A stretch of DNA of 63,673 bases, the filler included, from Nemertoderma westbladi (lineage: Eukaryota; Animalia; Xenacoelomorpha), in assembly GCA_032718475.1 (NCBI GenBank). It is 4 parts of 4 records of this genome, joined end to end, with 100 filler letters (N's around TTAATTAATTAA, not from the genome) between each part and the next. Parts side by side here need not be neighbours in the genome. Positions count along the whole stretch, not along the records: positions 1 to 21,315 come from JAUCBJ010007189.1; 3 more parts are not named here. One strand, written 5' to 3'. Under the pieces are notes generated by a model. It searched no databases. It was not told the DNA's origin and saw nothing but the letters and a program-made list of their open reading frames with translations. The translations under genes and the position numbers were made by a program. This document shows, piece after piece, positions 1,445-55,064 of this stretch. Positions within the stretch are counted from its first letter, which is position 1. The number at the start of each line of letters is the position of its first letter.

Positions 1445-4060
1445 TAGTAGTAAGTTTTCCTCTGATCTCTTATCCTCTCATTCTTCATCCCAGTATACTC
1501 TATACCCCTCTCTCGGTGTGTAATATACATCATCGGGCTGTGTTCCTCCAGGGCGACGGCAATCTCCCTAAGTACAACCCCACTGGTTCTCTTCTTCCAC
1601 TTCAACTATCGACGGTTTGCTGTCCATTCTATCTCGGCACCTCTGGTTGCCCATAGCAACATTTCCTCGCTTGACTCTATCGTCCTCCTCCCGTCCTTTA
1701 CTCCCAGCGTTATATCTATATTCATGAGATCTCGTATCTACCTCCCAGATGAACTCTTACCATTCTCTAACCATTCTCCTTCCATCTTCTGAGTGGGCTG
1801 GACGTTCTCTCGTTTGGCCGCTTGCGCCGCCAACGCTTCTCCCACTACCCGGTTGTACAGCCTCGTAGATATTCGCTGCCCTTCTACTCTCATCTGTCGT
1901 CAGGAGCTCCGGTTCACTTGAATCACCGCACGCATTTCCCACCGACATCTTTGGGGCATCTGTTGCCTGTTCTTCCTGGGTTCATTTGCCTGCGTTTCCC
2001 CCCGCGTTTCCACGCAGCCTTGTAGGCCTCCACTAGGCGAATTATAACGTTTAACGTTCTAACATTTATATAAATTATACCGTCATTACTTTCACCACGA
2101 TTATTTATTATATTATTATTTAAATTATTTTGTTCACCGTTATTGTTGATATTAATATTCTCACTAAACGTATTGTCATTACCCCCCCCCCCCCCCCCCC
2201 TCGTCCAGTCACACCAGTTCTGTGCTTGTCGTCCAGTACCTGTAAGTGGAGTATTAACAAAAGTTTCCATCACCCATGGTTCCTGATAAATACTTCCCGA
2301 ACCAGCTTCGCTCTCTGATTAACCCAGTTTTGCCAGTTCTAACCGGCGTTTCTGTTTCGCCTGATACTGCATTACCCCCCTCAACTGGGTGTGCATATCA
2401 CCCCGCATTCTCTTACCAGCCATCTCCATCTCCCTTTCATCCCTATGGCATTTCACCATACCATTCATATGCCATCTCCCTAATACTCTGGTCGGCTAAC
2501 TCTGCCTCCCTCGCCTCTACCCCTTTGCGCTCATTCATCTCTCTCTCAATCCTCTCTGTCTTCCTCGCCTCTCACTCTTTGCGCCCATTCACCTCTCTCT
2601 CAACCCTCTCTGCCTCCCTCGCGTCTTGCTCTTTGCGCTCGTTCACTTCTCTCGCCTCCCATTCTCTATACTCGTCTGCTTCCCTCGCAGCCCTCTCTCC
2701 ATAGTCTCTTGCCACCTTCTCGGCCCTCTCTTTACACTCTCATGCTAGCTCCCACTCCCTCTCTAACAGCGCAGTACCCTCATCCAGCTGTTCATCTAAC
2801 TCATTTTGGTCCAACGAGACCATGTCTAGCTGACACGCCAGATCTATCTCTAACACCCTTCTCGCTTTCGCGGAAAGTGTAGCGGACTTTTCAGTCACGA
2901 CGGACTCCCACCATCTACTGGTTTTATTAATTTTATTGTGCCTGCTAGCGGTTTTACTAACGGATGACACCAAAACCTCTGGGTTAACCTCGGGTTCGGC
3001 ATCGTTCAGACCCACCCATCCCACTAACTTAATCCCCCGCGCATCCACCAGATAAGGCCCTATGTACACTACACCATATGGCATTACCCCAGATCGCCAC
3101 AATTCTAACAGTTCTGTGGCGACCCCTCTCGCCCTCTCATTCGCCAATTCCCCTGCCCAAATCAGACTAGGTAGTGAAAATTTCTATTACACTCTCCGAG
3201 TCTGCGGCTCAACTTGGGCTCATCTACCTTTCCTCCTGTCTTGGCGTCTTTGAGGATCCTTCTCGTCGCGTTATATCCCCGTTGTAGGCGATCGCTCGTC
3301 CCGACGTCTTACTCCTGAACTCCTTGGCCTCCTCTCCTCGCCTGGCATGGTACTGCCGGCCCCACTGTTGTTGTTCCGGTGGTCCGCTTGCTGCCTGTAA
3401 CCGCTGGTTGGCTGGCAACACCGGTACTCCTCTCGCCGCTCCCGGTCCCGTGTCGACTCGCATCCCGCTTACCCGTCCGCCCTCCTCCTCGACAACCGAA
3501 CCATCTCTCCTCGGCGAATCTGGTAAGGCATGCCAGTACCACCTCGTCACCGCCTCCCGAATTTTCACATCTCTATCGCTCGGGGTGGGCGGCAGACTTC
3601 CTCCCTTCTCCGAACCCTGGGGCATTGTTGGTTCGCTCATCTCGTTGGTGTTGACACCTGATACCAGACTCTGATTGTGAAATAGAGAATAGGGTGTTAG
3701 TTTGCTATCGTACCACTAGCTGATCTGGTATGTAATTTTATTCTAGAAACTTTGTTGCCGTGGTGGTATGCAGCAAATACCTAGCAATACGTGGCAAGAG
3801 CGCGGTAGGATGTTAGTAACCGCCCTTTAGCCTAAATGGTGTGCCGGTAGCGAATAAGCTGCCTTTGCCTGAGCAACTACGTCAAATTCAGACAGATCAG
3901 TTGACAGCAATGCCTACAGCGCTAACCGGTACTGAATCGCTAGTAGGGTAAAGTCACCAAATTATAGAGTGTGCTGATTGCACCAAGTGCACCTACACGT
4001 ACTAGAAAACAGCACAAACTCGCACCTACCTGTAGGTGATGCAGGTCAGCTGTGGGGATT
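1445..4060 (-). mobile_element. BEL/Pao family copy E: leader and long low-complexity gag N-terminal region, decayed, no LTR visible
   Basis: IREAVTRWY, VVYIGPYLVDARGIKL, TPLTGT.RQ..WCD.T match copy A (24540-27060); 1460-1830 matches copy D 63350-63673; boundaries approximate. Confidence 0.85.
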
Positions 4061-7079: not shown

Positions 7080-7718
7080 ATGGCTAACGACCACCGAGAC
7101 CCCCACTCATTTATCCACCGCTGCGTTCCCCCGCCTTTGACATCGACTCCAAACAGTCGATGTGGGACCTGTGGAGAGATGAGTGGGACGCGTTCCTGGT
7201 CACGTCCGGCATGGAAAACCTGCGGACTGCTGACCCCAACAATCCACTGGACCCCACGGTATCAGCAGAACTACTGCGCGTAACGAATCGCCAACAGCGG
7301 GCCGCCCTAACCATGGCATTCTCGCGCAGCACGAACGCTATCGTGAAGGGTCTCGGCTTGTCGGCAGCAGACAACCAAAACGCCGCTACCGTGATCGCCT
7401 CCCTAGATACCCACATTAAAGGAGGAACCAACAAGCGGGTGCCGAGGAGACCCCGTAAGCGTTCCTCGTTAATCTGCGAGAAATCGTAGCCAAGTGCGGC
7501 TTCGAGGCACTCCCTTCCGCTGACGACCACTTCAATGAATGGCTCCTCGATCAGTTCATTGCGGGTTTCAGCGATAAGGAGGTGACAGAGCAACTGCTCT
7601 GCCTCCCCAGTGGCAGCTCTATCACCGCCGCCCTACACCTTGCCCAGTCCGTCTGGACCGCCCGCAAGGATGCCGCAACGATATCTGCCCCTGCTGCACC
7701 AACCCCAGTGACACCCGC
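7080..7718 (+). pseudogene. Gypsy gag, N-terminal part, frameshifted
   Basis: WDLWRDEWDAFLVTSG, LREIVAKCGF, WLLDQFIAG motifs; interrupted by element B. Confidence 0.8.
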
Positions 7719-8295
7719 TGTGACGGGATCAATGGACCCCGATTTATCCGTTGGTTATTCTATTTACGCGTCCCCGCCGTGTGTGTGTAAAAGGGTTCGT
7801 TGGATTAAGAGTTCTTGATTCGCGTATGTATAATATATAACAAGCACAGTCAATAGGATCAAGTATATGATTGAATGATGTACCGGTAAATGAGTAAAGA
7901 TATGGTGGCATTGTGGACGGTAATAGAAGTTGCCGTTCCGCCCTAACTGAACTGACTAACTAAGTAAAATGAAATGGCACAACAATTGGTAATATACTAT
8001 ACTGCCCTAGGTTGGCCATATTACTCAGCGGATGCCTGCCCCCCATTGGCTAATAACTCACTTCTCACCCTCCCATCTCTCTGGGAGTGTTTCCCCTTGT
8101 TGCTATTACTCTCTCCCTCCCGGAGGTGTAACCTCTGACCCCCGCTGTGTGTGTGTGTCCCTTTGGGGTTCGTCGCCCCGTTTATTGGGGTGATACGAGG
8201 TTGATTGGCAATCAACCTCGTACTCCCAATATTGCTTAAAGGCCCTGCTTGGCCAACTTTGTGTGGGATAGTTAGCGGAATTGAATACGCTAACA
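7719..8295 (-). repeat. Element B 3' LTR
   Basis: Direct repeat of 11065-11642, adjacent to the PPT. Confidence 0.95.
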
Positions 8296-9124
8296 CTCCC
8301 CCCCCATGCTATCTTCCCGCTGAGAAGATAGCATCCACCTATAGTGCGCTACAATTCCGCTGGATCCCGATCTACCATCGGGTGTGGGGTGGAATTATTT
8401 TCTCTGGAGCCGGCTTTCCAGGCCGCTCCCTATGGGTATGATATTGCTACCCCGTCTTGGTACAACTCTACCTATCTTGTACCAAGACATCTGGCGTCCC
8501 GTGTCGGGCCGATTGTGCGCTCCTCTCACACGACTTTTGTTTCCCCAACACCTTCACCACTAACTCCCCTCCACTCTCACTCTAACTCCTTCATACTCTC
8601 GGACCTCTTCGTCCCTCACTCTGCCTCCTGCCTCTCCCCCCCCCACGCTTGAATTGCACCCGCACTCTCTTCACACTATTACTCAACCCCCATCTCAGCC
8701 CACTTACTCCCGATGAGTCTCACCCCCCTCCTGTGCCGTCGCACTCAAGAAGTGTGATGTTGTCCAGTGTCTCGTCTGTCATAGTCAATTAGTCCCCGCT
8801 CCCAGTAGCTAATTGAGAAAGGTTGTATGACTATAGTACTTACTTCGTTTATATTTACTTGCTAAACTAATGATCCTTTACGTACGTACATACTAATTGC
8901 ACTTTTCAATTTTTTAAATATTTGAATTCATATTTAGGAGTTCGCACATCTCACGTGGTGCCTTCCAGGCATGCCACATCGAAGTTCTAGTTCATTCCAC
9001 CTGACTTCGGGAACCATCTCAACTCCTTTCCTCTGTTGTCCTACTCCCTTGGTCGTTTCTTGCCACTGCCGCTCCCTTGACTTTATCTCCCTTCAGACCT
9101 CTGACCCTCGCCGTCACCTCTTTG

Positions 9125-10670
9125 CTAATCCCGGTCGTCGACTCCTTGGGCGGTGGGCGCTGGTGTTATGAGCTCCTGGTATCGCTTCGCGGGTGGCCCC
9201 TCCGAGTGGCCCTGCTGTCTCTCCCTAGTGGCGTCCCATAGGATTACTTTCATCGCCCACGGCACGTGCTCCACCAAGAAATCTCTGAACTCCCCTCGGT
9301 TCTGTGGCATCCACCTGTCCAAATACCTTTGCGTATTTATCACCCCGGCATACGACGCGTAGGCATACCTCCTGGTAGGTAAATGGAAGTCTTCGCTTGA
9401 TAATCTCCAGGTGGGCCTCCTGATTAATATTGAAGAAACCCTACTGGAACTCCTGGGCCTTCATACGTTGCCGTGTCATGGCACCGACGTCGGCCCACTC
9501 CTCGAAGATTTTAAACTTCTCTTCGTCTTCCATCCAGTCGCACTGGCGTCCGTAGTGCCCCCGAAAGTTGCACTTCGAACATCGGTTGTGCAATTGTGGA
9601 CACGCCCCCATCCTGTGGCTCGACTCGCGGCAGTAGAGATAACTAGTCCCTTTCTGGAACCGGTACAGAGAGCTCCTTTCCTGGTGTGTTTGCCTCCCAC
9701 AGTAATCACAGCCGAGCACCAATGTCTCCCGCCCCACGCCGTCTTTCGTCCCAAGCGATCTCCGCAGTCTGTGGAGTTGCTGGTAAGCGAAATTTTGGAT
9801 GTTAGCATCCCTGTCCACGTCTATTTCCTCGCCCCTCCCGGGCATCGTCTCCCCGAATACTACCCGTGGTGCCGTCCCCGGTTGCTCGCCCAACCTGATG
9901 GTGCTCCCCGCGAAATCCATCGCCGGTTCCTCATGCACCCAGGCCCGCTTGCCAGGTCTATCCCAGAAGGCTCTCGCTCCACTGGCCGTCACCACCCTCC
10001 CGCCAACCCAGTCCGTGTCCAAGTGGCCTATCCTCCCGATGGGTGGCATCTCTCCGAACTCGTCGTCATCCTCGTCCTCTTCTGGGAGTGGCTCCAACCC
10101 CGGTGTCCCGGTGGATCAACTGTGTCCCTTCCCACCTTGGCTCTCGCCCGTGGCTCTCCATCCTTCTAGCTCTCCTAGCCTCCTTAGCGGGAGATCGCCC
10201 TCGGCGCCCGCTGGTTTGGGCATCGCCCGCGATCCTGATGTCGACTGTTTCGGCGATCCCACCATTCATCCTAATTCTCGCCCTAGAGACTCCCCCGAAC
10301 TCCCTGACGAAGTCCAACGAAGTTCGTCTAAGGCCGCCTGTTCCTCGAAGCCGTAGCTCTGCGCCCTGGCTTCCTCCTCCCTTTCTTCTGCCTCTCTCCT
10401 CTCCTGTCTAGCGATTTCTTCCAATCGCTTCGCTTCTCGTCTATCCGCCTCTAGCTGCTCCCATCTCTGATATGGCGTATCTACATCCCTGTCTACCAGA
10501 TTTCGGCAGTTATAGTACACTGACTCGCCTTTCAGCCCCGGGTGGTCTACCAGACCCTCGAAAGCCGTTTTGAAGGCTTTTCTGTAGCTCAGGGGTGACC
10601 CTGATAGCAGGAATGCCGTTGGTTCCTTCCCAATGACGACGGTCATGAATAGTTTTAGCAAACCTATCAT
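9125..10670 (-). pseudogene. Accessory CCHC zinc-finger ORF (ORF-Z) of element B
   Basis: ORF pieces 10266-10820 and 9441-10097 share one frame broken by TGA stops at 10266 and 10116; CDYCGRQTH..LYCRESSHRMGACPQLHNRCSKCNFRGHYGRQC; continues past a stop and frameshift to 9125. Confidence 0.75.
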
Positions 10671-10679
10671 TATCCTCGT

Positions 10680-10998
10680 CGCCGACGTTTCCTCTATCCC
10701 TCCGGGTCCAGCGTCGTACTGGTGGCCCCACCGTCGCCGTTCTGGTGGGCCGTCCGTCGCCCTCGGCCTGTGGCTGGCCAGCGATATCGGCACGTCGACC
10801 GCCGTCGTGTGTCGACTCATCCCTCTCTTCTCCCGACTCGTCCTCTCGTCGCAGATGGCCCCCTCTCGTTTGGACTACCGGGTCGTCCCTGGTCGACGGG
10901 TCCGGTGTCATAGGTCGGTACCGTCGCGTCGCGGCCTCGCGGATCGTTAGGTCGCCGTCCGGGGTCCGCGGCGGTGTTGTTTCTCCTTCTCGACTCAT
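10680..10998 (-). pseudogene. Short gag N-terminal remnant of element B
   Basis: MSREGETTPP..LTIREAATRRY..AGQPQAEGDGRPT.TATVGPP matches the start of gag in copy A. Confidence 0.85.
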
Positions 10999-11055
10999 CT
11001 TATCTTTATTTCTGGTGGCTGGCAGTCACAGTTTCGGGTTTCAGAGTTCTATGGT

Positions 11056-11064
11056 TTCTATTAC
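11056..11064 (-). promoter_or_regulatory. Non-tRNA PBS of B (GTAATAGAA), complementary to LTR site 11267-11275
   Basis: Abuts the 5' LTR; 9/9 complementarity. Confidence 0.75.
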
Positions 11065-11642
11065 TGTAACGGGATCAATGGACCCCGATTCATCCGTTGG
11101 TTATTCTATTTACGCATCCCCGCCGTGTGTGTGTAAAAGGGTTCGTTGGATTAAGAGTTCTTGATTCGCGTATGTATAATATATAACAAGCACAGTCAAT
11201 AGGATCAAGTATATGATTGAATGATGTACCGGTAAATGAGTAAAGATATGGTGGCGGTAGCGGACGGTAATAGAAGTTGCCGTTCCGCCCTAACTGAACT
11301 GACTAACTAAGTAAAATGAAATGGCACAACAATTGGTAATATACTATACTGCCCTAGGTTGGCCATATTACTCAGCGGATGCCTGCCCCCCATTGGCTAA
11401 TAACTCACTTCTCACCCTCCCATCTCTCTGGGAGTGTTTCCCCTTGTTGCTATTACTCTCTCCCTCCCGGAGGTGTAACCTCTGACCCCCGCTGTGTGTG
11501 TGTGTCCCTTTGGGGTTCGTCGCCCCGTTTATTGGGGTGATACGAGGTTGATTGGCAATCAACCTCATACTCTCAATATTGCTTAAAGGCCCTGCTTGGC
11601 CAACTTTGTGTGGGATAGTTAGCGGAATTGAATATGCTAACA
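11065..11642 (-). repeat. Element B 5' LTR
   Basis: Direct repeat of 7719-8295. Confidence 0.95.
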
Positions 11643-11647
11643 CCCGC

Positions 11648-13687: not shown

Positions 13688-14860
13688 TGTAAAAGCTTTT
13701 GCGGACATAACAAGCCATTTTTCTCCGCAATATACCGTGTAGGTATTTTAGTGGACATAACAAGCGATTTTTACCCGCTATGTCTGCATGTGTGCTTTAG
13801 CGGACATAAAAAGCCATTTTTGCCGCAATGCGCATAATACTCTAAGGACTGGAGCTCAGATGACGACATCTATCAGCTGATTTACTGTCGACATGTAGCT
13901 TTTGGTTCTTTGTTCGGCTCAGCCAGTTCGGCCAATCAGAGCGATTTTCATTTTATGTGTGCTTTAGCCTTATGATGACCGTGCTAGGCATGTCAGTGTC
14001 AGTGTTGTATTTTTCTAAGCCCAGAACACCGGCTTAGGATTCTTCTGTGCTTCTGTAGAAGTTTCAGACTTTGGCCAGAACATTAGATGGCTTTGATTAT
14101 CGAAACGTAAAACTATTACCTGACCAACTACTGAATCAATGCAACGCAACATATCAACACTGCAACACTGCACTGCTGCATTCACCGCATTATTTTACTT
14201 CTGTTATTAATTACTGTTAATTGGTGTATATTGTTGTTATATTTGGAGAACACCGATAAAGAATCATAAAACCCCCAATCTTCTTGATTACTGAAGGTGA
14301 GAGGACAGGTTACCGGTAGCAATTGCGACTTACATTATAGTGGTTTTGTGTGTATCAAATGCTATTTCATAATCCCTACATGTGTCAGTTGCTATCCTCC
14401 TTATATATGATCAAATTCAGTGACGGTCGGCAGATCAGTGTGAAGTAGTGTGAAGTCGTGTGAGGTAGTGTGACTGGTAATAAAGCATCTCCTAAAGAAT
14501 GCGCCTTTTACGAAACTCCGTAGCCATCTAGTTGTGATTAGTATAAGTCATAACTCTGTTTTATATATTTAAAGCGCCATGTCCTAAAGGAACTGTTGAT
14601 ATTTCCCCGAAAGTGAATAATATTGTCAGAGATTATATAGTAACGATCAATCGAATAATACAGTAGGTCTGCACCGCAATAAGATCAAAGCATCCGAATC
14701 CAGTCTCCCTTAACAGTGGGTGAATGATCGCGCATAGACTGGTTTCGGCTAATGTTACTTTATGTGTACTAAATATTTGTTATAGGCCAAGGTCGATTTG
14801 TAAACAAGAGGCCACCTAAAATTGGCAGGTTAAACTGCTAAAGGTCTGAAAGCACGAACA
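13688..14860 (+). repeat. Element C 5' LTR (1173 bp; three ~50-bp gcggacataa repeats at the start)
   Basis: Colinear with 18181-18970 apart from indels. Confidence 0.88.
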
Positions 14861-14871
14861 GTAATAGTTTT
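14861..14871 (+). promoter_or_regulatory. Non-tRNA PBS of C (GTAATAGTTTT), complementary to LTR site 14109-14119
   Basis: Abuts the LTR end; 11/11 complementarity to AAAACTATTAC. Confidence 0.78.
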
Positions 14872-16625
14872 GTTAGTTTCTTTATTGCACTGTAGGCAAT
14901 AAAGTCGAGGTACCGGTCAAACGGTAAGCTGTAGGCCTAACTGCCCAACTGCCCGAACCGGTACTTAAAAGGTACAACAGTATTATTCGATTTTTGATAT
15001 TTATATACCGGTAGGTCTTGATATTTAATCAGGGACGGCCGCCCTGGTTTTTTATTGGGATTTTACTTATTTCTGTCAGTCTTATTTATCTGTAAGTATA
15101 ATATTGAGCAGAGGGCGTGTAAGCCTGCTCAGATTGTATAGATAATTTGTAGGCTGGATTGTTGTCTAGCTGTTGTTAAGTTTGAAGGGATTGCAGTGTG
15201 TGTAGAGTGTATGTCCGATAAAGTACTAGTTAGGAAAGTAGGGGCATCTTGAGTTGTAAGGTAAATCCCCCCCGAAAGAATAAGTCGTACTACTCGGTTA
15301 GAACGCATACTAACTAACCATTTCGGAGTCTGCATATACTGTAGTTTATTTAGGCTTGACAGTAGTCTGCCAGCATTTGGTCTGTATTTTGTTTGTATAG
15401 TCTGCACGGGTAGCGTAATATTTATTATTCAGAGTTTATGCAAGTATTCGCAACCTTCAAACTCCCCCAGTTTATTCCTACAGTAATTGTGCTTGTTATA
15501 CATACCGTTATAGTTAAATTAACCCCGGTACTACATCAGGGCTGCTTGGCGTAGGTAAAGACTGGTGATTTTATGCTCTAGTCACTCCAGCAGATACCGT
15601 AGTTCTTTAGCTGTTCAAGTATATTTAACTGCTGGTTATTTGTTATATAAGTACTTGTACCTAATCTAATATTTTCCGAAGGTAATTTAGTTTGTAGGCA
15701 GTATATTTGTGTTGTAAAGTGGTTAATAGGCACGTTAGCTCTGGTTGGCTGCGGTAATTAACTTCTAGGTAAGGACACTCCGGGTACATAACGTAGTACT
15801 TATAGTGCTGTAGAGCAAAAAGACTATAAGTCGTCAGACGGTGGTAATTTCTTATCTGGACAACACAGTGTATTTACTACTGCTTAATTATTTTCAAATA
15901 CCGTAGTATCCTGTCAGTTTGTAATAACCAGAAATTCTAACTCCTTGTTAGACTGGTTTGTAGATTCCCTGTAAAACTACCCTAAAATATGTACGTGTAA
16001 TTTGTCATTGTTTATTTAGAGATTGTAATCTCACCCCATAATTGTAAGTAATTAGTAGTGATAAGTAACTTAGTAAAGTAGAATTATTTGTTTTAGTGTC
16101 CAACAGGTAGCACTCCACTGAGAGCGTTTAGCTTCTGTGTAGTGACCCCCTTAACCAGAAATAATAACATTTATTTCAAATATTGGCAAAACCCTTGTAC
16201 GGGTACAAATATATTATAAATCAATTCAAACCGATTTATAAAATAGTAGGCCTGTTATACATTAATTAGTTCTTAATATCAGTTGGGCTACTGCTTAATA
16301 ACAGTAATAAAGTAAAGGAAAGTAACCTTTAAATTCAGAAATTCAGTTATTATAAAATAATTAACATTACCGGTATTTAAGGTAGGCTTATTATATATAT
16401 TTATAAATCTAGGCTGAAATTATATACCGGTATTCTGTAACTAAACCTAGTTTGTAACAATACTTATATATACTATAAGTGTATACCGGTATTCTAATAT
16501 AATATATATCGCGTTACATTGAGTAATGGTATCGGTAATTGATCATTAGGCTTACAGTGATACTGAATTACTAGACTTGCTTTAACTGTCGTTATAATAG
16601 TAGGCATTCAACTGTATAATCAAGC

Positions 16626-18103
16626 ATGGCTGACAAAAGGCAAACTCTGTCAGATAGTCTCCTAGAAACAACTGTCTGCGACTCCGACAGGAGTATTGAA
16701 CGTTTGACACCGAAGTTCAAGTCCCCTCCTACTGTAAGAAAGGTCATCCCTCCAGTAGTAGTATCAGATCCTAGACTAGTAAAGCACCGTAGGTCTATCA
16801 TAGGCACTCGGGCTCAAGTCAAGCAAGAACAAGAGGCAGCTGTTAAACAGCAGCAACATCCGAACCAAGAACTTATTTCTCAGCGGACCGATAGCTCCAG
16901 TAGTTCAGATACTGTGGAGTTGACGCCCGAGATCGGAGCAGAGATAGCAGAGGCGGTTTATTCGGATCCCCTTCTCATTCTTCCTGAAGCTGTATTCACT
17001 AGGGTATTGATTGCGGTGGAGGAACATCAAATCGATTGGGCGAGAAGTAAGCGATCAACTAAGGACAGTTATGCGGGATACACGAAGGAGGAACTGAAGT
17101 CGATTGTCAAGACGCAATGGAACTTCCCCGGACCCGGACTCCCGTTTAACTTATCGGAAGCTGCCTGTAGCCGCCTCCCGTTTAACTTATCGGAAGCTGC
17201 CTGTAGCAGCCTGCCTGTAGCTGCCTGCCGGTGCCTGAGGATGGGAGTGGTAAATTGGAGATCTATTGTGCGTATTGTAGACTCAATAACTTACACATCT
17301 TCGCAGTCTGCCCTCAATTTATGACTCAATGCCATCATTGCCAGTTTAAAGGACACACAAGTTTCGATTGCCCTTTCAACCGAGATCTAGAAAGTGTAGA
17401 CGAAATGGTTGCCCTTCACTATATTCTTGCCTGGGAAGCTAACGCAGATCTCCATTGCGAATCACGTCATCGGTACTACCCTGGACGTGCCTATGAAGGA
17501 GTCTATGCGTTTCACCCATATCTCTTTGCTTCGGTTGAGCAAAAATCTCGCACACCTAGTTACGAGTTAATGAAGCGTGTTGGCGAGAATATTTCGACCA
17601 AATTTGTTCGCAAGTACCTTAGGAATATTAATCCTAACGACCTTAATTCCTATAACTTGATCAACTTCATCCGTCAAGATCCTGAATATGGTGACTTGTG
17701 CATCAACTCGCATCCAGAACTACAAGAAGTTCATAGACGACCCTATGAATATAGAGCCCGAGAACGCGAGTTGGAAAGAACCATCAAACCGAGGAAATTT
17801 CTCACTACTCATGGTCCGCCTACCGCTCTCGTGCAAATGACCCGTCAGGGACCAGTAAGAGCTGCTGTCCTGAAACGCGCTCTAAAGGTTGTTCGACCTC
17901 ATTCCACTGAGGTTGATATCGATCAACCGGGTACCTCAACCGGCGGATACACCGACCGTAACCCTAAACCTTCCGATGCAATTGTATTGCACCCCTCACC
18001 CAGGAGTTATAGCCCTCCTAGTAAAGTGGCTCGCCCCAAAGAGAAAAGGACTCTTACTAGCCTCAAAAAACTTCGTAAACGCCGTTCACATAAGAAGGAC
18101 TAA
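16626..18103 (+). pseudogene. ORF-Z homologue (~475-487 aa if repaired) with double CCHC module; split by a 14-nt duplication
   Basis: ORFs 16626-17324 and 17231-18103 join in frame if one ctgcctgtagc.gc 14-mer is removed; YCAYCRLNNLHIFAVCPQFMTQCHHCQFKGHTSFDC; basic C-terminal tail. Confidence 0.8.
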
Positions 18104-18180: not shown

Positions 18181-18970
18181 TATAAAAGCTTTTGCGGACA
18201 TAACAAGTCATTTTTCTGCAATGCGCAGAATACTCTAAAATAGCCCTGAATTTGTCCAACTACGCGACGGGAAGGAATTGGAGCTGGTGTGACGACATCT
18301 ATCAGCTGATTCTCTGTGGACGTGGAACTTTTCTTTGTTCTGCCTATTCAGCCAATCAGAGCGATTTCCCCCCTTATATCTGACAGAGGCCTATGGAAAC
18401 TCGCGCAATCTTCTTGATTACTGAAGGTAAGAGGAACAGGTTTACCGGTAGCAATTGCAACTGACATTATAGTGGTTTTTGTGTGAATTAAATGCTATTT
18501 CATAATCCCTACATGTGACAGTTGCGATCTTCCTTATATATGATCAAATTTAGTGACGGTCGGCAGATCAGTGTGAAGTAGTGTGAAAGATAATAAAGCA
18601 TCTCCTAAAGAATGCGCTATTTATGAAACTCAGTGGCCATCTAGTTGTGATTAGTATAAGTCATAACTCTGTTTTTATACTTAAAGCGCCACATCCTAAA
18701 GGAACTGTTAATATTTCCCCGAAAGTAAATATATTGTCAGAGATTATATAGTAACGATCGATTGAATAATACAGTAGGTCTACACCACAATCACTATCAA
18801 GGAATCCGAATCCAGTCTCCCAAAACCGTGGGTGAAAGGTTGCGCACAGACTGGCTTCGGCTGATTAACTCCAGTACACTAAGTAATTGATATAGGCTAA
18901 AGTCGATTTATAAACAAAAGGACAACTAAAATTGGCAGGTTAAATTGCTAAAGGTCTAAAAGCGCGAACA
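18181..18970 (+). repeat. Element C 3' LTR (790 bp, internal deletion, diverged)
   Basis: Homologous to 13688-14860 but lacks about 13975-14275. Confidence 0.88.
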
Positions 18971-19208
18971 GAGGTCGGCCCCCACCCAGCGCTGGCTCAG
19001 GCACAGCCACAAGCACCTACCCCACCTGTGGCGCCCCCTAACGGTACCCCTACCCACACCCGATCGGGGAGAACCATCAGACCTCCCCAACGCTATGCAA
19101 ATAGCGACTATAAAAAACTATCGCATACTACTGTATTAAATAAACACGTTACCAAACTCACTACAAAGCGTACTCGTAACCCCCACCCCACCCACCACCA
19201 GGGGGGTA
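18971..19208 (+). pseudogene. Gypsy pol extreme C-terminus, 3' UTR and PPT
   Basis: TRSGRTIRPPQRY is the typical Gypsy integrase tail motif; agggggg precedes the LTR. Confidence 0.8.
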
Positions 19209-23903: not shown

Positions 23904-24470
23904 TGTTAGCTTATCCAATTCCGCTAACCAACCCATAAAGTGAGGTTTTAAGCAATATTGGGGAACACGAGGGTGATCAATCAACCTCGTGTCACCCCAA
24001 CAAAGTGGGAGGGAGAAACATACACACAATAGAGGTCAGGGGTTACACCCCTGAGAGAGAGAGAATAGCAGGGGCGAAGGGAAACACTTCAGGGGAGGTG
24101 AAAGGGCGACAACAGGGTTATTAACCAATGGGGGGAAGGCACCGGCTGAGTAACGTAACAATGGCCAACCGTGCAGTATACATTATCAGTACAGTGTATC
24201 ATTTAGTCAGTGTGTCATTTTAGTCAGTGTATAGTTAGGTTAGTTTAGCTAGGGAAGTACCGGGACTTTAATTACCGTCCTCATTACCCGTCCTCCATTT
24301 ACTATCAACATTGTGTATCATTTATCTATATCAGCTATATTTCATCTTATATTATATTATACCCGGGAAGCTATATACAACGATCAATAAACTCTTTCAC
24401 CTTTCACACACGGCGGGGACGCATGGATTGAAAACCGGATAAACCAGGATCCTTCGTGGATCCCGTCACA
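23904..24470 (+). repeat. Element A 5' LTR
   Basis: Direct repeat of 34410-34976. Confidence 0.97.
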
Positions 24471-24479
24471 GTAATTAAA
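24471..24479 (+). promoter_or_regulatory. Non-tRNA PBS of A (GTAATTAAA), complementary to LTR site 24267-24275
   Basis: Abuts the 5' LTR; 9/9 complementarity to TTTAATTAC. Confidence 0.75.
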
Positions 24480-24539
24480 CCCGCGAGTGATTGAATCGGA
24501 GCTGCTACCCTAGTTAACTAAACTCGAGATAATAACAAG

Positions 24540-27500: not shown

Positions 27501-28066
27501 CCATAGGAAGCACAGGCGATGGGAATGGCCACGTTAATCGATGCGCTAAAAACTAGGATCGAATTACCACCCGTGGAACTGTTCAAATTCGATGGGAGTA
27601 GGCTGGAAGAATACCTACAGTTTCGGCGCATGTATAGTAACGAAATACTAACAAAGAACTTGACGCAGGCGGAGTGCCTAAAGTATCTGCAAGTATATAC
27701 AGGAGGCCCAGCATACGACATCGTGAGGCAATACCAGGGCATAGAGGGCGGCTTCACGACAGCATGGCGGGCACTGGACAGGGAATACGGGCACCCGGCC
27801 AAGATCATCCGGCAAACCCTGAGAGGCATAACATCGGGTGGCCTACAGGATAATCCTGTTAGTATTAAGACGTTCGCAAACAAGGTCGAGAAGGCGCTAA
27901 TCGTACTAAAGACGCTAGACGCACCATACGAGCTCAACGCGTCCAACAACATCACCACGATAGCGCAGGCACTACGCAACAAGCTGTACAATGGCTTCGC
28001 AACAAGTGGAGGAAAATCGCTTTCTCCACTCGAGATAGAAAGGGTGCGGAACCGGGTCTAGAAGAA
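24540..28066 (+). pseudogene. Element A gag: long low-complexity/coiled-coil N-terminus, then DUF1759-like capsid region; stops and frameshifts
   Basis: E/R-rich and poly-N segments; ELPPVELFKFDGS..EYLQFRRMY..AWRALDREYGHP. Confidence 0.88.
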
Positions 28067-31000
28067 ATGTCGAGCTTCTTAAACTACGAAGCCGAGTTAA
28101 TAACCGACCCATTCTATAGCGAGGATAGCCTGGGAAAGGGACCAAGAACAGATTACCATAGACCGAAACCAGAACACAACACGTCAAACGCATTGCCGAA
28201 GCTCAGGCAATCACTGCCATACGCAGCGACGCAGGGGACTGCTAGTCCACAGGTAGCCGGGGGTAAGACCACATCATGGAGCAGACAGGGGAAAAATAAC
28301 AACACAAACAAACATGACCCTAGTACGCCCAGTAGGCCGAACCCAAACAATAAGAATAGTAGGGACTTTGGTACAAATGCAATCGCAATATGCAATGCAT
28401 TGTATAAGGACGGATACGACCCAAAGAGCAAATGCCAGCTACATACAAATGCGCTTCATCAGACCATGAACTGCAGGTACTGGCAAGCATTACCCAGTGA
28501 AGATCAGGTAGAATACGCGGCGAGAAATGAGATCTGCTCGCGATGTGTGATGAGTGGACATAGAGCTAGACAATGCGAGGAAACGCCGATTAAGTTCGGT
28601 CAAAGTAAAGGCCAAATGATGGCAACGAGCACAGTAGGGGCGAAGAAGAGAGGAATTGTGCTACTTGGGGTAGTACCAGTGCGAGTGATCGGGGAAGGCA
28701 ATCGATCAGTGACCACACTGATGCTGGTCGACAGTGGAGCTGCCTTCACATTAGTCGAGAATTGGGTGGCCGAGGAGATAGGATTGAGGACAAGGCCAAG
28801 TAGGATGGCGGTAACAACAATCTCCAGCAAAGATGAGATCCTGGAGATGAGAACCGGATGGTGCGCGATAGCAGCAATAGCACCGGGATGCGACTATGGG
28901 GCGAGCATCGACCCCATCCAGGTGATAGAGTCGATAAACATCAACACCAGGCGACCAACAAACATCGAGGTCGAGCAATATAAATTCCTGGACAGTATCG
29001 ATTTCTCAATCCCAGAGGTGGACGTTAGGAAAGTGTCCATCATAGTAGGAATGGACTGCCAGACGGCCCACGAGAGAATGCAAACGGTCTTCGGCGAAGA
29101 CAGGCAGTGTGACCCGGTGGCGATTTTAACACCATTCGGGTGGACACTGAGCGGCCCAATCAAGAGTAAGATACCATTTAGGATGTCGGAGACATCAGGA
29201 TGCATGTTCGCGGGAACTATGCAGGAAATGGGTGATGAGAGAGCGGAGGAGCAGCTTAGGAGACTGCTCAGACAGGATTTTGAAGGATTAAAGGAGACCG
29301 GGGTCGGAACCTCGGTAGAAGACAAGCAGGCTCTACAGAGCGTAAAGGAGTCTATGAGGTGTGATGAGGGGCGGTATACCATAGGGATGGTATGGAAGCT
29401 ACCGAAGCTACCGCTACCCGATAATAGAGGGATGGTACTCACGAGGCTTCGTAAGTTGAAGCAGACTCTAAAACGGAGCCCCGAGAAGAATGACAGAACG
29501 ATTAAGAAGTACGTCGAGAAAGGATGGGCCGTGGAGTTACCGGTCGACGAGCCAAGCATGGACAGGACATATTACCTGCCACTCCACGTGGCTTTAGATC
29601 CGAAGAAAGGTAAACTGCGGATGGTAGTTGACGCATCAGCTAAAACCAACGGCAAATGCCTAAACGATTATCTGCTGGAGGGTACCAATATCTACAACTC
29701 GGGGATCGAGGTCCTACTTAGATTCAGGAATGGGAAACATGCCTTCACCTGTGACATAGAAGGCATGTTCAACCAAGTCCGTGTAACAGAAGAGGATAGC
29801 GATAGTCAACGATTTTTATGGTACAACGGCGACGAAGAACCGTCGACCATACTGGTGTACAAGATGATAGTACAGAACATGGGAGCCAAGTCGTCTTCGT
29901 TCACGACGACTATGGCTGTAAGAGACACAGTAAAGGGAAAGGAGGATAAATACAGCACTAGGGCCGTCGATATGATTCGACGCGGCTTCTACGTAGACGA
30001 CGGGATTGAGTCTGGAAACACGGTTAAGGAACTACTGGACACAGGGCGCGAGGTTCGCGACATCCTAAAAGGATCCGGCTTTAACCTAACCAAATTCCAA
30101 TCCAGCTTGGAGGAATTTATCAAGGCGATAGAGGACGAGAGACCAGAATCGACCATGGATAATCCCACAACAGCCAAGGGGCAGGACATGGCGAACAAGA
30201 GGATAGAGTCTCAGCAGAAGGCACTGGGAATCGTGTGGAATAGAGAGACAGACGAACTGAAGTACCAGTTGAGACAGGAGGGCGCAGACATCCACACAAA
30301 GAGGGGCTATGTGTCGTACATAGCAAGGATATACGATCCCCTAGGCCTAGCATCCCCACTACTAGTCACGGGGAAACAGATACTCAAGAGAGTATACAAA
30401 CTGAAGGATGAGTGGGACGTAGAAGTACCAGAAGAGATCAGGAAACAGTGGTGCAAGTGGACAGAAGGTTTGGGGCAGATGGGAACATACAGCATGCCAC
30501 GAGTGTATTTCCCGGATGGGGACATGACGAACCTGGATCTGCACATGTTCTCCGATGCGTCACTAGAGGCATACGGAGCGGCACTCTATTTAGTACAACG
30601 AGGCTACGTGGCTGCGAGGCTAGGAGTTAGGGCCACAGCCTACATAATGGACGCTATTCCCAACATAGTGGAGACACACTACTGGACGGATTCCATGGTA
30701 GTGCATGGCTGGCTACATAACGAGAAAACGAGATACCCTATATTCGTCGCAAATAGAGTGGACGAAATAAGGGCGACGACAGAACTAGAAAGGTGGCACT
30801 ACTGCCCTACGGACGAGAACCCTGCGGACTTGTTATCGAGGGGTGTGGCACGCCACACTTTCTTAAAAAAGGAAGTATTGTGGCAACATGGGCCACAGTT
30901 TCTGAGCGACAAGGAGGCCTGGCCACCGATGAGAAAGGTGGACCCGGGCTCAGGAGAAGCAGTATTAGGGGGAGAAGAGGGAGATTCAGAGGGAGAAGAG

Positions 31001-32473
31001 ATATACTCCCAGATGGTGAGGGAGATAAGGGACGTGCAACCAAAACCAGGAGAACTGTGCGACAACCCAACGGATAAACTCCTCAGCTATAGCTCTAGTT
31101 GGTATAAGACCAAGAAATTAGTGGCGTACTGGAGAGCCTTCGGGAATTTCCTCGCGGGAGTTGGCAAAGACGTAAAGACTAGGACAACAATAGATCTGGA
31201 AGGAGCGTCCAAAGCAGTCATCCGCTATGAACAACGGAAGAACTATGGCGACGAGGTGGAATGCGTCGGTAAACAACAGCATCTCCGACGGGACAGCGAG
31301 CTGATCACGCTGTTACCACAACTTAATAATGACGGGATTCTAGTAATGAACTCTAGGGTGGGATACAACAACAGCATCGTCGTACCACCGAAGCCCATCA
31401 TCATCCCCACAGGATCGCCGATAGTCTACCAGATTATCTGGGACTCCCACAAGTCGATATTGCATGGGGGCACCAACCGAACCCTCACGGAGATACGGAG
31501 GACCTTTTGGGTCAAACAGTTGAGGAAGAAGGTAAAAGCGGTAGTGGGGCAGTGCCAGACCTGCCGACGAGCGAAGAAGGAGCGAGCCATACAGGAGATG
31601 GCACCACTACCGGCGAGTAGGGTAAGACAGCACGACCCACCATTTACGCATTGCGGTGTGGACATGTTCGGGCCAATACAGATCAAGGTGATGCGGCACA
31701 CGGAGAAACGCTACAGTATTATCTTCGTATGTAACAACACGAGGGCAGTATGGATAGAACTCGCCCAAGATGCAACTGCATCAGCATTCATTAATGCCTT
31801 AGAAAGGTTCAGAGACCGCAAAGGGGGGACGATCGCAGTAATATACTCCGACAACGGAATCAACTTTGTGGGAGTGGAGAACGAGATGGCAGAGGCCTTG
31901 GAGGTCTTGGAAGGGGAGGAAGTCAGGGCAGCCATGAGACGACGACAAATAAAGTGGGAGAGGAGGACGCCGTATGCACCACATACCCTAGGATGCGTCG
32001 AGAGACTCGAGGGTAGTTCGAAGTGTCTTATGATGAAGTTGATGAACACCCATATGGTTACGGAGGACGTGCTGAGAACAGTACTTGCGAAGTGTGAGGG
32101 TATCATTAATAGCAGACCGCTATATCCAGAGAATGATGACCCTGAGTCACTAGACGTGCTGACGCCCAGCCATTTCCTAATGGAAAGGCCAGCGACCATC
32201 GACATGCGGGGTGTAGACCCAGATGACATACACTCCCGCCAGTGTTGGAAAGTCGCTAAGGCGATAAGCGCAGAGTATTGGAGGAGGTGGGTTGAGGAAT
32301 ACCTACCCACGCTTCACAGAAGAAGCAAGTGGAGGAACACGAACAGAGAGTTAAGAGAGGGTGATCTCATGATCGTTACGGATGATACAATCATCAACAA
32401 CCAGTGGCGGTTGGCGAGAGTCATAGGCACTTACTCCGATGAGGACGGAAGAGTCCGATCGGTAGAAGTGTGA
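28067..32473 (+). CDS. BEL/Pao polyprotein (CCHC, aspartic protease, RT, RNase H with deletion, integrase)
   Basis: CSRCVMSGHRARQC; LVDSGA; YYLPLH..KLRMVVDASAK; CDIEGMFNQV; FYVDD; FSDASLEAYG; YWTDS; NPADLLSRG; GVDMFGP; SDNGINF; WRRWVEEYLPTL; premature stop at 32473, native end near 32557. Confidence 0.95.
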   Translation: MSSFLNYEAELITDPFYSEDSLGKGPRTDYHRPKPEHNTSNALPKLRQSLPYAATQGTASPQVAGGKTTSWSRQGKNNNTNKHDPSTPSRPNPNNKNSRDFGTNAIAICNALYKDGYDPKSKCQLHTNALHQTMNCRYWQALPSEDQVEYAARNEICSRCVMSGHRARQCEETPIKFGQSKGQMMATSTVGAKKRGIVLLGVVPVRVIGEGNRSVTTLMLVDSGAAFTLVENWVAEEIGLRTRPSRMAVTTISSKDEILEMRTGWCAIAAIAPGCDYGASIDPIQVIESININTRRPTNIEVEQYKFLDSIDFSIPEVDVRKVSIIVGMDCQTAHERMQTVFGEDRQCDPVAILTPFGWTLSGPIKSKIPFRMSETSGCMFAGTMQEMGDERAEEQLRRLLRQDFEGLKETGVGTSVEDKQALQSVKESMRCDEGRYTIGMVWKLPKLPLPDNRGMVLTRLRKLKQTLKRSPEKNDRTIKKYVEKGWAVELPVDEPSMDRTYYLPLHVALDPKKGKLRMVVDASAKTNGKCLNDYLLEGTNIYNSGIEVLLRFRNGKHAFTCDIEGMFNQVRVTEEDSDSQRFLWYNGDEEPSTILVYKMIVQNMGAKSSSFTTTMAVRDTVKGKEDKYSTRAVDMIRRGFYVDDGIESGNTVKELLDTGREVRDILKGSGFNLTKFQSSLEEFIKAIEDERPESTMDNPTTAKGQDMANKRIESQQKALGIVWNRETDELKYQLRQEGADIHTKRGYVSYIARIYDPLGLASPLLVTGKQILKRVYKLKDEWDVEVPEEIRKQWCKWTEGLGQMGTYSMPRVYFPDGDMTNLDLHMFSDASLEAYGAALYLVQRGYVAARLGVRATAYIMDAIPNIVETHYWTDSMVVHGWLHNEKTRYPIFVANRVDEIRATTELERWHYCPTDENPADLLSRGVARHTFLKKEVLWQHGPQFLSDKEAWPPMRKVDPGSGEAVLGGEEGDSEGEEIYSQMVREIRDVQPKPGELCDNPTDKLLSYSSSWYKTKKLVAYWRAFGNFLAGVGKDVKTRTTIDLEGASKAVIRYEQRKNYGDEVECVGKQQHLRRDSELITLLPQLNNDGILVMNSRVGYNNSIVVPPKPIIIPTGSPIVYQIIWDSHKSILHGGTNRTLTEIRRTFWVKQLRKKVKAVVGQCQTCRRAKKERAIQEMAPLPASRVRQHDPPFTHCGVDMFGPIQIKVMRHTEKRYSIIFVCNNTRAVWIELAQDATASAFINALERFRDRKGGTIAVIYSDNGINFVGVENEMAEALEVLEGEEVRAAMRRRQIKWERRTPYAPHTLGCVERLEGSSKCLMMKLMNTHMVTEDVLRTVLAKCEGIINSRPLYPENDDPESLDVLTPSHFLMERPATIDMRGVDPDDIHSRQCWKVAKAISAEYWRRWVEEYLPTLHRRSKWRNTNRELREGDLMIVTDDTIINNQWRLARVIGTYSDEDGRVRSVEV

Positions 32474-32664
32474 ATAGGTGGCAAGATAGGTGCGAAAAAC
32501 AGGAAGACCTACAGGAGGGCTGTAGGGAAGTGCTGTCTACTAGAAGGGGCACCTTAGAATGGAGTTAGAGAGGAGTTTAGTCGTCCACGTTTTGGACTGA
32601 GGGGGGTGGGATTTAGGGCGAGACGCCCTTCCCACACATAAAATAAAAATAAAATAAATAAAAA

Positions 32665-32716
32665 TTAGAGTCAGAGTTAGTTAGTTAGTTAGGAGGTACG
32701 TAGTACCGAGAGTTAG

Positions 32717-32790
<74 letters not shown>

Positions 32791-33400
32791 GAGTTAGTTA
32801 GGAGGTACGTAGTACCGAGAGTTAGAGTTAGTTAGTTAGTCAGGAGGTACGTAGTACCGAGAGTTAGAGTTAGTTAGTTAGTTAGTTAGTTAGTTAGGAG
32901 TTAGTTAGGAGGTACGTAGTACCGAGAGTTAGAGTTAGTTAGTTAGGGGGTACGTAGTACCGAGAGTTAGAGTTAGTTAGTTAGTTAGGGGGTACGTAGT
33001 ACCGAGAGTTGGAGTTAGAAGTAGTAAGAGGGTACGTAGTACCGATAGTTAGTGGAGTTGGAAGTAGTAAGAGGGTACGTAGTACCGATAGTTAGTGGAG
33101 TTAGAAGTAGTAAGAGGGTACATAGTACCGTTAGTTAGTGGAGTTAGAAGTAGTTAGTAAGAGGGTACGTAGCACTGTTAGTTAGTAGAGAGAGTTAGTG
33201 GAGTTAGAGGAGTTAGTAAGAGGGTACGTAGTACCGGCTAGTAAGAGTAGAGTTAGAGGAGTTAGTAGGGGGGTACGTAGTACCGGTTAGTAAGAGTAGA
33301 GTTGGAAGTTAGTAAGAGGGTACGTAGTACCGGCTAGTAAGAGTAGTAGTTAGTTGTAGAACTAGTTAGTAAGAGGGTGCATAGAGCACCGTTAGTAGTA
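32665..33400. repeat. Compound (TTAG)n / ggtacgtagtacc tandem array inside element A
   Basis: Pure (TTAG)n at ~32718-32790; repeated gaggtacgtagtaccgagagttag units. Confidence 0.93.
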
Positions 33401-33529
33401 AGAATTAGTGATAGGGGGGTATAAAATAGTATATAGTAAGAGATAAAAGAGCACAATATATCATAGAAGTAGTAGCCAGAAAGGTAGGTAGGGTTAGTAG
33501 CACAAAATTTAAAATGAAAATTAAGGATA

Positions 33530-33760
33530 TTAGAATCACCTCCGAACTACAGAAGAGCCTTCAAGGCGGCCTTCAAAGGTCTGGTAGAACACCTGGGGCT
33601 GAAGGGCGAGTCGGTGTAATACGCCAGCCAGCATCTAGTAGACAGGGAGGTGGATAGACATCACATGGGCTGGAAGTGGATAGATATGGGGAGAAGCGAC
33701 TGGAAGAAGTCGCCAGGGGAGAAAGGCCGAGAGAGAATGAGGCGCGTTATGTAGACGAGC
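33530..33760 (+). pseudogene. Remnant of the ORF-Z N-terminus downstream of pol in A
   Basis: SPPNYRRAFKAAFKGLVEHLGLKGESV*Y..LVDREVD matches SPLSYRKAFKTAFEGLVDHPGLKGESVYY..LVDRDVD of B. Confidence 0.85.
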
Positions 33761-34409
33761 ATGTAATATAATATATGATAATAATAGCCTTATAATAATT
33801 ATATAAGTAAACCACGTATGTATATTATAAAGTACGTACCGTAGTCAAGCACAACCTTTTCCAATTAGCTACTGGGACTGGGGACTAATCGACCATGGTA
33901 CTGTAAGTCACGGACGAGACGCTGACGACATCATACTTCTTGAGTGCGACGGCACGAAAGGGGGGTGAGGCTCGTCAGAAATGAGAGGGTGAGATAGGGC
34001 GAGATACGAGTAATAGAGTGTGGAGTGCGGAGTGTGGAGAGAGTGTGGGCGCAATTCAAATGTGGGGGGGGGGGAAGTAAGAGGCGGGGTGAGGGACAAG
34101 GAGGTCCGAGAGCGTGTGAGGGCTAGGGTGAGAGTGGAGGAGAGTTAGGGCGAAAGTGTTGGGGAAACAAAAATTGTGTGAGAGAAGCGCACGATCAGCC
34201 CAACACGGGACACCACATGTCTTGGTACAAGATAGGTAGAGTTGTACCAAGATGGGGTAGCATTATCATACCCATAGGGAGCGGCCTGGAAAGCCGACCC
34301 CAGGAAAATAGGCCCACCCCACACCCGATACTAGATCGGGATCCAGCGGAATTGTAGCGCACTAGAGGTGGATGCTATCTTCTCACCGGGAAGATAGCAT
34401 GGGGGGGAG

Positions 34410-34976
34410 TGTTAGCTTATCCAATTCCGCTAACCAACCCATAAAGTGAGGTTTTAAGCAATATTGGGGAACACGAGGGTGATCAATCAACCTCGTGTTA
34501 CCCCAACAAAGTGGGAGGGAGAAACATACGCACAATAGAGGTCAGGGGTTACACCCCTGAGAGAGAGAGAATAGCAGGGGCGAAGGGAAACACTTCAGGG
34601 GAGGTGAAAGGGCGACAACAGGGTTATTAACCAATGGGGGGAAGGCACCGGCTGAGTAACGTAACAATGGCCAACCGTGCAGTATACATTATCAGTACAG
34701 TGTATCAATTAGTCAGTGTGTCATTTTAGTCAGTGTATAGTTAGGTTAGTTTAGCTAGGGAAGTACCGGGACTTTAATTACCGTCCTCAATACCCGTCTT
34801 CCGTTTACTATCAACATTGTGTATCATTTATCTATATCAGCTATATTTCATCTTATATTATATTATACCCGGGAAGCTATATACAACGATCAATAAACTC
34901 TTTCACCTTTCACACACGGCGGGGACGCGTGGATTGAAAACCGGATAAACCGGGATCCTTCGTGGATCCCGTCACA
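34410..34976 (+). repeat. Element A 3' LTR
   Basis: Direct repeat of 23904-24470. Confidence 0.97.
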
Positions 34977-54458: not shown

Positions 54459-55064
54459 AACTACTCTCTCTCTGGCAGACCGGCATGGCGCACTTGATAC
54501 ATAATAAATATAAAAATAGTAAAACTGTTATGTTCAAAATGTTAATTTCGTTAATGCTTTATATATTTTTTATGTGAATAATATTTCTGGAGTCCCGAAA
54601 TTTTACTTTAATATTAAATTTAATTTTTCAATCTTTACTATAGCACTCGGTAAATAGAATGCCCCTAGAATAGTGAAAAAACCTTTTTTCCCAGAACTAG
54701 TAAATAATTTTATTAATTCTTCATTCATTTTAAGTAACTATTTGCCTACTAACGCATGAACTGTCGCAATGGCTTAGGCCTACTACAGTACTACCCGCAT
54801 TATGGCGGGAAATTTAAATTACATAAAGAGCATGTACCTGTTTTTAACGAGTCGAAGTCAGTATCTAAAGTGTACTGATTAACTTCACAATACAATATCA
54901 GAATATTGAACAGTAATCAGTGAAATTTTAGTTGAGTATGCTGTAGATAAACTGTTACTTTGCACAGACTGACAGATAGCCTAATATTGAAAAACAAATT
55001 CCATAGTAGGCCTACTTCGATTTGGCCTACGTTGCTAGGCTACGAATCCGCAAATAGAAAACTC

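Follow-up and report, generated by a model that had tools for sequence, protein, structure and literature searches.

The locus described here raises the question of what kind of gene is represented by a Cys/His-rich reading frame, ORF-Z, in an LTR element that has lost its pol gene. The window, that is, the whole stretch of Nemertoderma westbladi DNA that was analyzed (63,673 nucleotides, filler included), is repeat-dense animal DNA in which a Pfam scan found Pecanex and CYTH ORFs amid many retroelement fragments. The Pecanex C-terminal domain lies in a 1284-codon ORF (41962-45816, minus strand) and the CYTH domain in an ORF at 54951-55754 (plus strand), both of which are probably host genes. 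The LTR element carrying ORF-Z, here called B, has two relatives in the same window, A and C (Table 1). A and B are both bounded by LTRs of the form TG...CA (98% identity within the pair) and have 5-bp duplications, with a G-rich tract preceding the 3' LTR; the LTR pair of B differs by 9 mismatches and 1 gap in 579 aligned bases. The pol of A contains BEL/Pao-type domains (Pfam; Peptidase_A17, E 5e-28; DUF5641, E 2e-20), and these domains together with the BEL/Pao order PR-RT-RH-IN were found in A and in the relatives described below. B retains just the first ~110 codons of gag, followed by the out-of-frame ORF-Z, and was tied to A on the basis of the LTR, gag start, 3' UTR and remnant of a third gene (ORF3) that the two have in common. 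An AGTT-rich tandem array stands immediately behind pol in C (about 59777-60150), as it does in A, at the site that the ORF3 5' part takes up in intact relatives.

Table 1. Positions of the features of elements A, B and C, counted along the whole window
Feature	Position	Strand	Remarks
Element B	7719-11642	-	3.9-kb LTR element without pol
B 5' LTR	11065..11642	-	TG...CA
B 3' LTR	7719..8295	-	
B target-site duplication, 5 bp	11643-11647 and 7714-7718		outside the LTRs
B gag 5' piece	10673..10998	-	ATG at 10998; homologous to start of A gag
Deletion junction in B	10673..10675	-	3-base overlap; loose ends in 3/3 runs
ORF-Z	9369..10670	-	434 codons; 3' part of ORF3
ORF-Z E/R-rich stretch	10359..10454	-	start of linker; likely coiled or disordered
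ORF-Z acidic run	10059..10082	-	within linker
ORF-Z conserved zinc module	9372..9725	-	three Cys/His clusters and helical cap FE..AD.G..T..R..GFF
80-codon tail	9125..9367	-	other frame; frame change near 9365-9368, indel listed at 9365
B 3' untranslated region and polypurine tract	8296..9124	-	common to A and C
Element A	23904-34976	+	BEL/Pao element related to B
A gag-end/pol ORF	27869..32473	+	protease, RT, Peptidase_A17, integrase, DUF5641
AGTT-rich tandem array in A	32675..33354	+	site where relatives carry ORF3 5' part
ORF-Z N-terminal-region remnant in A	33528..33745	+	downstream of pol, one stop
Element C	about 58770-63673		third relative of A/B

We found that ORF-Z is a broken, 5'-truncated remnant of a third gene, and that B is unable to yield an ORF3 protein from it. 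A preliminary description had credited B with about 500 codons. This stretch is not open, being interrupted by the frame change and by in-frame stops at codons 135, 185 and 410 (10266-10268, 10116-10118 and 9441-9443). The tail is probably the ORF-Z C-terminus beyond the frameshift, and none of the 83 long homologues matches it significantly. The features that had been listed for the protein (a helical-looking N-terminus, an E/R run, an acidic run, Cys/His modules and FEEWAD..TRQR..GFF..TYQE) were all recognized, and the lack of an env-like transmembrane anchor was borne out by a highest 19-residue hydropathy of 1.39. The last Cys/His cluster has the CX2CX4HX4C spacing of the retroviral/Gag knuckle, and the window contains a single occurrence of the core zinc motif, against 0/100 shuffles; two ligands that are near-invariant in the zinc-module family are absent from B. 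The N-terminus of ORF-Z matches, as had been noted, the remnant downstream of pol in A (52% over 58 aa, E 2e-12, 33536-33709; 74% at the nucleotide level over 199 bp). Since B has no pol, its assignment to the env position rests on this remnant and on the relatives, and not on B.

Next, we compared B with contigs from three DNA runs of the host (at most two samples). The gag frame of B crosses the junction out of frame with ORF-Z and stops at 10510-10512. Contigs of gag type fit B from 10673 upward and those of ORF-Z type fit it to 10675, and both continue into other sequence; upstream of the junction, the ORF-Z-type copies carry non-gag sequence. Given that the contigs diverge at 10673/10675, B is the product of a deletion whose two sides overlap by 3 bases, and in other copies ORF-Z extends further upstream. 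The deletion at this short overlap was probably a template switch, and B would then have been copied as a non-autonomous element. We also considered whether B was copied from a spliced subgenomic RNA and rejected this, because the fit of ORF-Z-type contigs through 10675 leaves AT, not AG, at the acceptor; in A, a GT sits one base beyond the position matching the junction. B is deeply covered by contigs, mostly at 90-95% identity, so that many diverged copies are present in the host, although the depth is summed over contigs and does not give the number of copies. Among the 40 variants listed of 373, which include two of the three ORF-Z stops but not the third, nearly all the covering depth shows another base at these two stops, and the same is true of the two codons that lack a near-invariant zinc ligand in B. 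In other words, these lesions are private to B.

Two further observations concern the noncoding parts of the elements. The segment at 8295-8433, which adjoins the 3' LTR on its inner side, far exceeds the rest of B in summed contig depth and is conserved in A and C; it is a candidate cis-acting signal. No TGG-type primer-binding site was found within 98 bases of the A 5' LTR or in 133 bases of B (regions 24470-24570 and 10930-11064, respectively), both elements having young LTR pairs. TGG sites are present in a gag piece near 3600-3700 and in a metagenome relative (L023), and the missing site in A and B may reflect decay or a local peculiarity.

Searches with ORF-Z alone gave little. No homologue was obtained in word-based searches with near lengths, longer lengths or the stop-free piece of ORF-Z; Pfam searches on five ORF-Z pieces and a PDB sequence search with the single protein gave nothing useful; the ESM Atlas gave no usable match; a single-protein scan of metagenome contigs confirmed 0/103 candidates; and the zinc motif was not found in viral contigs. 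In an HMMER scan with the C-terminal 224 residues among 1.84 billion proteins, 51 proteins matched at E<=1e-3 (best 6e-12), all via the zinc module. No env or capsid Pfam family occurs in these 51 homologues. One of them, P0052, is an ordinary zinc-knuckle protein and was removed prior to alignment, and another, P0003, has two zinc-module copies in tandem. In the alignment of 18 long members, a low-complexity linker, which is long and varies widely, joins a conserved N-terminal domain to the zinc module, which is conserved as well. ORF-Z matched the profile of 43 long members with E 6.6e-18, over residues 316-433 only. Against the PDB, the best match of the 43-member profile was EXD2 (E 3.5e-15), and the 18-member profile matched EXD2 (E 4.5e-13), then Lin28 knuckles, Egalitarian and WRN; the matches of the 18-member profile to the Lin28 and HIV nucleocapsid knuckles were weak. 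The model of the ORF-Z zinc module has pLDDT values of 87-97 over the C-terminal 69 residues. Its fold search gave a best Foldseek E of 0.21 and a best VIA Z of 3.1, the latter on the low-confidence N-terminal helix, which amounts to no clear fold match and does not demonstrate a new fold. The zinc module defines a family that has no Pfam model.

A more distant zinc-module ORF lies elsewhere in the window, at 16620-18100 (plus strand; profile iE 3e-7). It is interrupted near 17200 by a short duplication, gave no match to the exonuclease profile, and is flanked by direct repeats of 590 bp (14276-14861 and 18406-18971, 86%). This is possibly another pol-less LTR element that retains the zinc-module gene.

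We searched metagenomes with a degenerate DNA motif of the zinc module, which gave at least 120 loci; 80 of those listed have flanks, and the 40/120 listed loci without flanks were excluded from the context counts. One locus (L071) was kept in the counts, though it resembles a chance motif match (28-codon frame). Because the loci were picked by the zinc motif, the ubiquity of the module among them is by selection, and because most of the listed loci fall under a few accession prefixes, they are not independent hosts. An A-like pol was found upstream on the same strand in 30/34 listed loci with at least 4 kb upstream (opposite strand, 0), and in 37/48 listed loci with at least 2.5 kb upstream. 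Thirteen pol ORFs were scanned; DUF5641 was present in 13/13 and Peptidase_A17 in 11/13. ORF3 is in a separate frame, with its first ATG usually 200-600 bases past the pol stop. Among the 31 listed loci of at least 7 kb, only L023 has a long LTR pair around both pol and the module, and six have identical contig ends of 51-111 bp. DUF1759 was found in three gag-pol ORFs of the relatives, and the ORF3s that were scanned contained no env, DUF1759 or other gag family. A hydropathy window of at least 1.9 occurs in just one of 24 intact ORF3s. These data show that ORF3 is a third gene behind pol in a BEL/Pao clade, and that it is neither gag nor env. The preliminary description had proposed a third, non-env gene behind a BEL/Pao pol, and this holds; it had missed, however, that the copy in B is itself a 5'-truncated pseudogene, and that ahead of the zinc module intact relatives mostly have a DEDD exonuclease fold. 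Its assignment of ORF-Z to the env position is likewise sound for A and the relatives but is not shown by B. In four relatives (L005, L051, L043 and L015), ORF3 reaches 1300-1600 codons, with 500-950 residues before the exonuclease that match no Pfam family.

This exonuclease is the N-terminal domain seen in the long homologues. It shares an ORF with the module in 31 of the 39 listed pol-linked loci and lies in a broken frame in six more (37/39 in total); the other two, L047 and L059, are linked to pol and have the zinc module, with the exonuclease absent. The AlphaFold model of one ORF3 (L013) shows an N-terminal domain and a zinc module, both modelled with confidence, and a disordered linker; its structural matches are EXD2 (Foldseek E 1.6e-6), WRN, NrnC, Nibbler and Egalitarian. 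By profile and model, the N-terminal domain of intact relatives has an EXD2/WRN-like DEDD 3'-5' exonuclease (DnaQ) fold. An ESM Atlas search with another relative, P0026, gave a best value of 0.83 for a protein with an exonuclease and a CCHC cluster, which is a lead only. For catalytic scoring, the domains were dereplicated at 80% identity (56 of 65 domains), and 50 spanned both ExoI and ExoIII. All four D-E-D-D acids are present in 24 of these 50, none in 13, and one to three in 13. The catalytic state tracks the pol tree: in one clade, 8/8 scored domains have four acids, and in another, 7/7 have 0-1. Judged by its catalytic acids, the DEDD domain appears to be often disabled, with catalysis apparently lost in whole lineages. 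Two loci (L010 and L079), which lie on a separate deep pol branch, have His at the Tyr column of ExoIII.

We then calculated dN/dS values by the Nei-Gojobori method for 13 hand-picked pairs. The exonuclease gave 0.08-0.52 (11/12 pairs computable), including 0.22-0.52 for catalytically dead domains, and the zinc module gave 0.02-0.43 (10/13 pairs computable); the module is the most conserved part in 7/9 pairs for which both ratios were computable. None of the pairs compared gave a sign of positive selection. Both ORF3 domains are under purifying selection, and the preliminary description, which had called for such a comparison across copies, is upheld on this point for the zinc-module family. 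Between B and the remnant in A, the ratio is 0.49 in the ORF-Z frame versus 1.13 and 0.92 in the others, over 57 codons only. We also compared the module tree with the pol tree. Of the pol splits with good support, 16 of 18 are also present in the module tree; there is no strong conflict, and the two trees are correlated (rho 0.89, 28 rows; 0/2000 permutations). Given this agreement, ORF3 is old and vertically inherited. In each of the two trees, the family in our window is a long branch that splits off deeply, and its precise placement is unsure.

If the relatives carry an exonuclease, then it must be asked whether the family of B once did so. The exonuclease profile had no match anywhere in the window, B included; in A, the interval matching the ORF3 5' part is mostly tandem array. 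Against the post-ExoIII profile, 142/2000 shuffles did as well as the first 60 residues of ORF-Z, and neither hhalign nor comparison with the homologue P0012 gave an exonuclease signal in the ORF-Z N-terminus. One match was borderline (residues 33-67 on the ExoIII region of L010; 1/300 shuffles, three segments tried), and its register is incompatible with the hydrophobic helix expected next. A by-eye alignment of the ORF-Z start to the post-ExoIII helix was rejected after it failed shuffle tests. However, the exonuclease is found in 37/39 listed loci and in 4/5 deep pol lineages other than that of the window; the nearest long relative of the B module is P0012 (support 0.81), which has a degenerate exonuclease domain; the 351 residues from the ORF-Z start to the motif fall within the family range of 161-564 from ExoIII to the motif; and ORF-Z continues upstream in other copies. 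On these grounds, we consider that the lost 5' part of B probably held the exonuclease fold.

The strongest alternative is that the family in the window represents an exonuclease-less type of ORF3, with a helical, E/K/R-rich N-terminus, a linker and the zinc module, so that only a short or unrelated 5' part was lost. L047 and L059, which have a charged helical stretch ahead of the linker, would be examples of this type, and it agrees with the blank or borderline results of the direct tests for a remnant in ORF-Z and with the second zinc-module ORF in the window. However, the ORF-Z N-terminus did not have its top match to L047 or L059, and the near-constant presence of the domain in pol-linked loci and other deep lineages, the grouping of the B module with P0012 and the spacing within the family range all speak for a lost exonuclease. 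We therefore regard the exonuclease-less type as a minority possibility, though one to be taken seriously.

What, then, was the gene for? A nucleic-acid-binding role of ORF3 is plausible. A nuclease-type fold joined to a zinc module in intact relatives makes an RNA-handling helper likelier than an envelope, and since selection has continued in whole lineages that no longer have catalysis, the core job would be binding. On balance, we lean towards ORF-Z being the broken 3' part of an old BEL/Pao ORF3, built of exonuclease fold, linker and zinc module, that acted as an RNA-binding adaptor and whose exonuclease was lost in B. As for the mechanism, there is a little short of an even chance that the zinc module grips RNA of its own element while the DEDD fold holds the RNA 3' end, or trims it where the acids are intact, with binding as the core job; ORF3 might in this way escort, localize or shield the genomic RNA, to give some examples. 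Egalitarian is a catalytically inactive DEDD protein, and it appears RNA-bound in PDB titles. EXD1 and Maelstrom are further DEDD proteins that are inactive and still bind RNA (PMC5408684). A broader proposal, which is speculative and rather unlikely in its entirety, is that a deep BEL/Pao clade has kept since its origin an RNA-control gene, in which a DEDD nuclease is fused to an undescribed three-zinc module, that whole lineages made this into a pseudo-nuclease comparable to Egalitarian, EXD1 and Maelstrom, and that it serves as an adaptor or an anti-piRNA decoy. If this is true, then deleted elements such as B would show ORF3 travelling apart from pol.

We also considered the possibility that ORF3 is a counter-silencing factor, which trims or sequesters host small RNAs or acts as a decoy for the DEDD proteins in the piRNA pathway. 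Nibbler is among the enzymes of RNase D type that the fold matches, and long variable linkers separate the conserved ends. According to PMC5408684, EXD1 and Maelstrom, as inactive DEDD derivatives, take part in piRNA biogenesis, and the DEDDy ORF3s of rotifers have been suggested to have a role in silencing. However, the best sequence match is EXD2/WRN and not a piRNA factor, the strict co-divergence with pol suits a replication-coupled job at least equally well, and the pairs compared show no positive selection. This function is rather unlikely.

Less probable still is that ORF3 acts in the particle on reverse-transcription intermediates, either by trimming primer or cDNA 3' ends or by nucleocapsid-like chaperoning. 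The retroviral spacing of the last cluster, the weak matches to the Lin28 and HIV nucleocapsid knuckles and the absence of a TGG site adjoining the LTR in A and B are consistent with this idea, and enzymes of WRN type act on DNA (PMC5408684). However, the gag-pol ORF of A has its own knuckle (a weak match at 28535-28579), one entire pol clade has lost catalysis, and L023 has an ordinary TGG primer-binding site and yet keeps the module. The last point also leaves the priming-chaperone role, which the preliminary description had offered, unsupported as a need of the whole clade. Finally, it is very improbable that ORF-Z represents an envelope gene or another gag, or a gene captured from the host that has no role for the element, as its env position and gag-type knuckle might suggest, because there is no hydrophobic anchor (with the rarity of such segments in intact ORF3s), no env or capsid family in the homologues or scanned ORF3s, and a fixed site behind pol with purifying selection and tree congruence; by position, Pfam and trees alike, ORF3 is neither gag nor host gene.

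Returning to the adaptor reading, we compared ORF3 with known systems. In the ICTV profile of the Belpaoviridae (PMC8742986) and in a BEL/Pao survey (PMC3118150), env is the only third gene named. ORF3 resembles the env-like ORF3 of Belpaoviridae in being a third gene that follows pol and precedes the 3' LTR, but it has neither a signal nor membrane segments and shows no similarity to glycoproteins. The small accessory ORFs of MDG1 elements are of another type (bioRxiv 10.1101/2025.03.14.642691). A functional model for an adaptor, by analogy, may be CERV of C. elegans Cer1, a non-structural accessory of an LTR retrotransposon that has a cysteine-rich element and is needed for export of the genomic RNA (PMC10309623). 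CERV differs in that it is made from a spliced mRNA sharing sequence with gag, and PMC10309623 nowhere uses the word exonuclease. Among cellular proteins, intact ORF3s have the same fold and ExoI/II/III motif order as EXD2/WRN, Nibbler and Egalitarian, and the trypanosome RNase D likewise pairs a nuclease with zinc knuckles (CCHC fingers; PDB match). Cellular genes of EXD2/WRN type differ from ORF3, whose linker is long and variable and whose zinc module has no structural match at E<=0.001; ORF-Z itself has no EXD2/WRN-type domain.

The closest parallel comes from bdelloid rotifers, in which the LTR retrotransposons Juno and Vesta carry DEDDy exonuclease ORF3s that are shared with Athena retroelements (PMC5408684) and are cited in reviews (PMC5718144 and PMC6338049). 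By description, these are like ORF3 here in being a non-env gene that follows pol, includes a DEDD exonuclease of DnaQ-like/RNase D-like type and has no membrane anchor, and a Cys-His-Cys motif has been noted in Vesta2 and Vesta5 (PMC5408684). According to PMC5408684, the rotifer carriers are rotifer-specific and non-BEL, their catalytic residues are intact, and their ORF3s were acquired recently and repeatedly, with no clear departure from neutrality. In contrast, ORF3 here has a BEL/Pao carrier, co-divergence with pol, purifying selection, a large conserved C-terminal zinc module, and whole lineages that are catalytically dead. We found no exonuclease ORF3 of BEL/Pao in the open-access literature that was searched, and an ancient non-env ORF3 of a BEL/Pao clade is apparently undescribed. 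It adds a conserved, selected third gene that has co-diverged with pol across several deep BEL/Pao lineages, and its zinc module could mark the clade that carries it. In addition, the role of retrotransposon-borne DEDD nucleases, a question raised by the rotifers, is now approachable via natural pairs in which an active-looking and a dead domain go with a common zinc module. A DEDD ORF3 as retrotransposon cargo is already known from rotifers; the carrier here is a BEL/Pao element.
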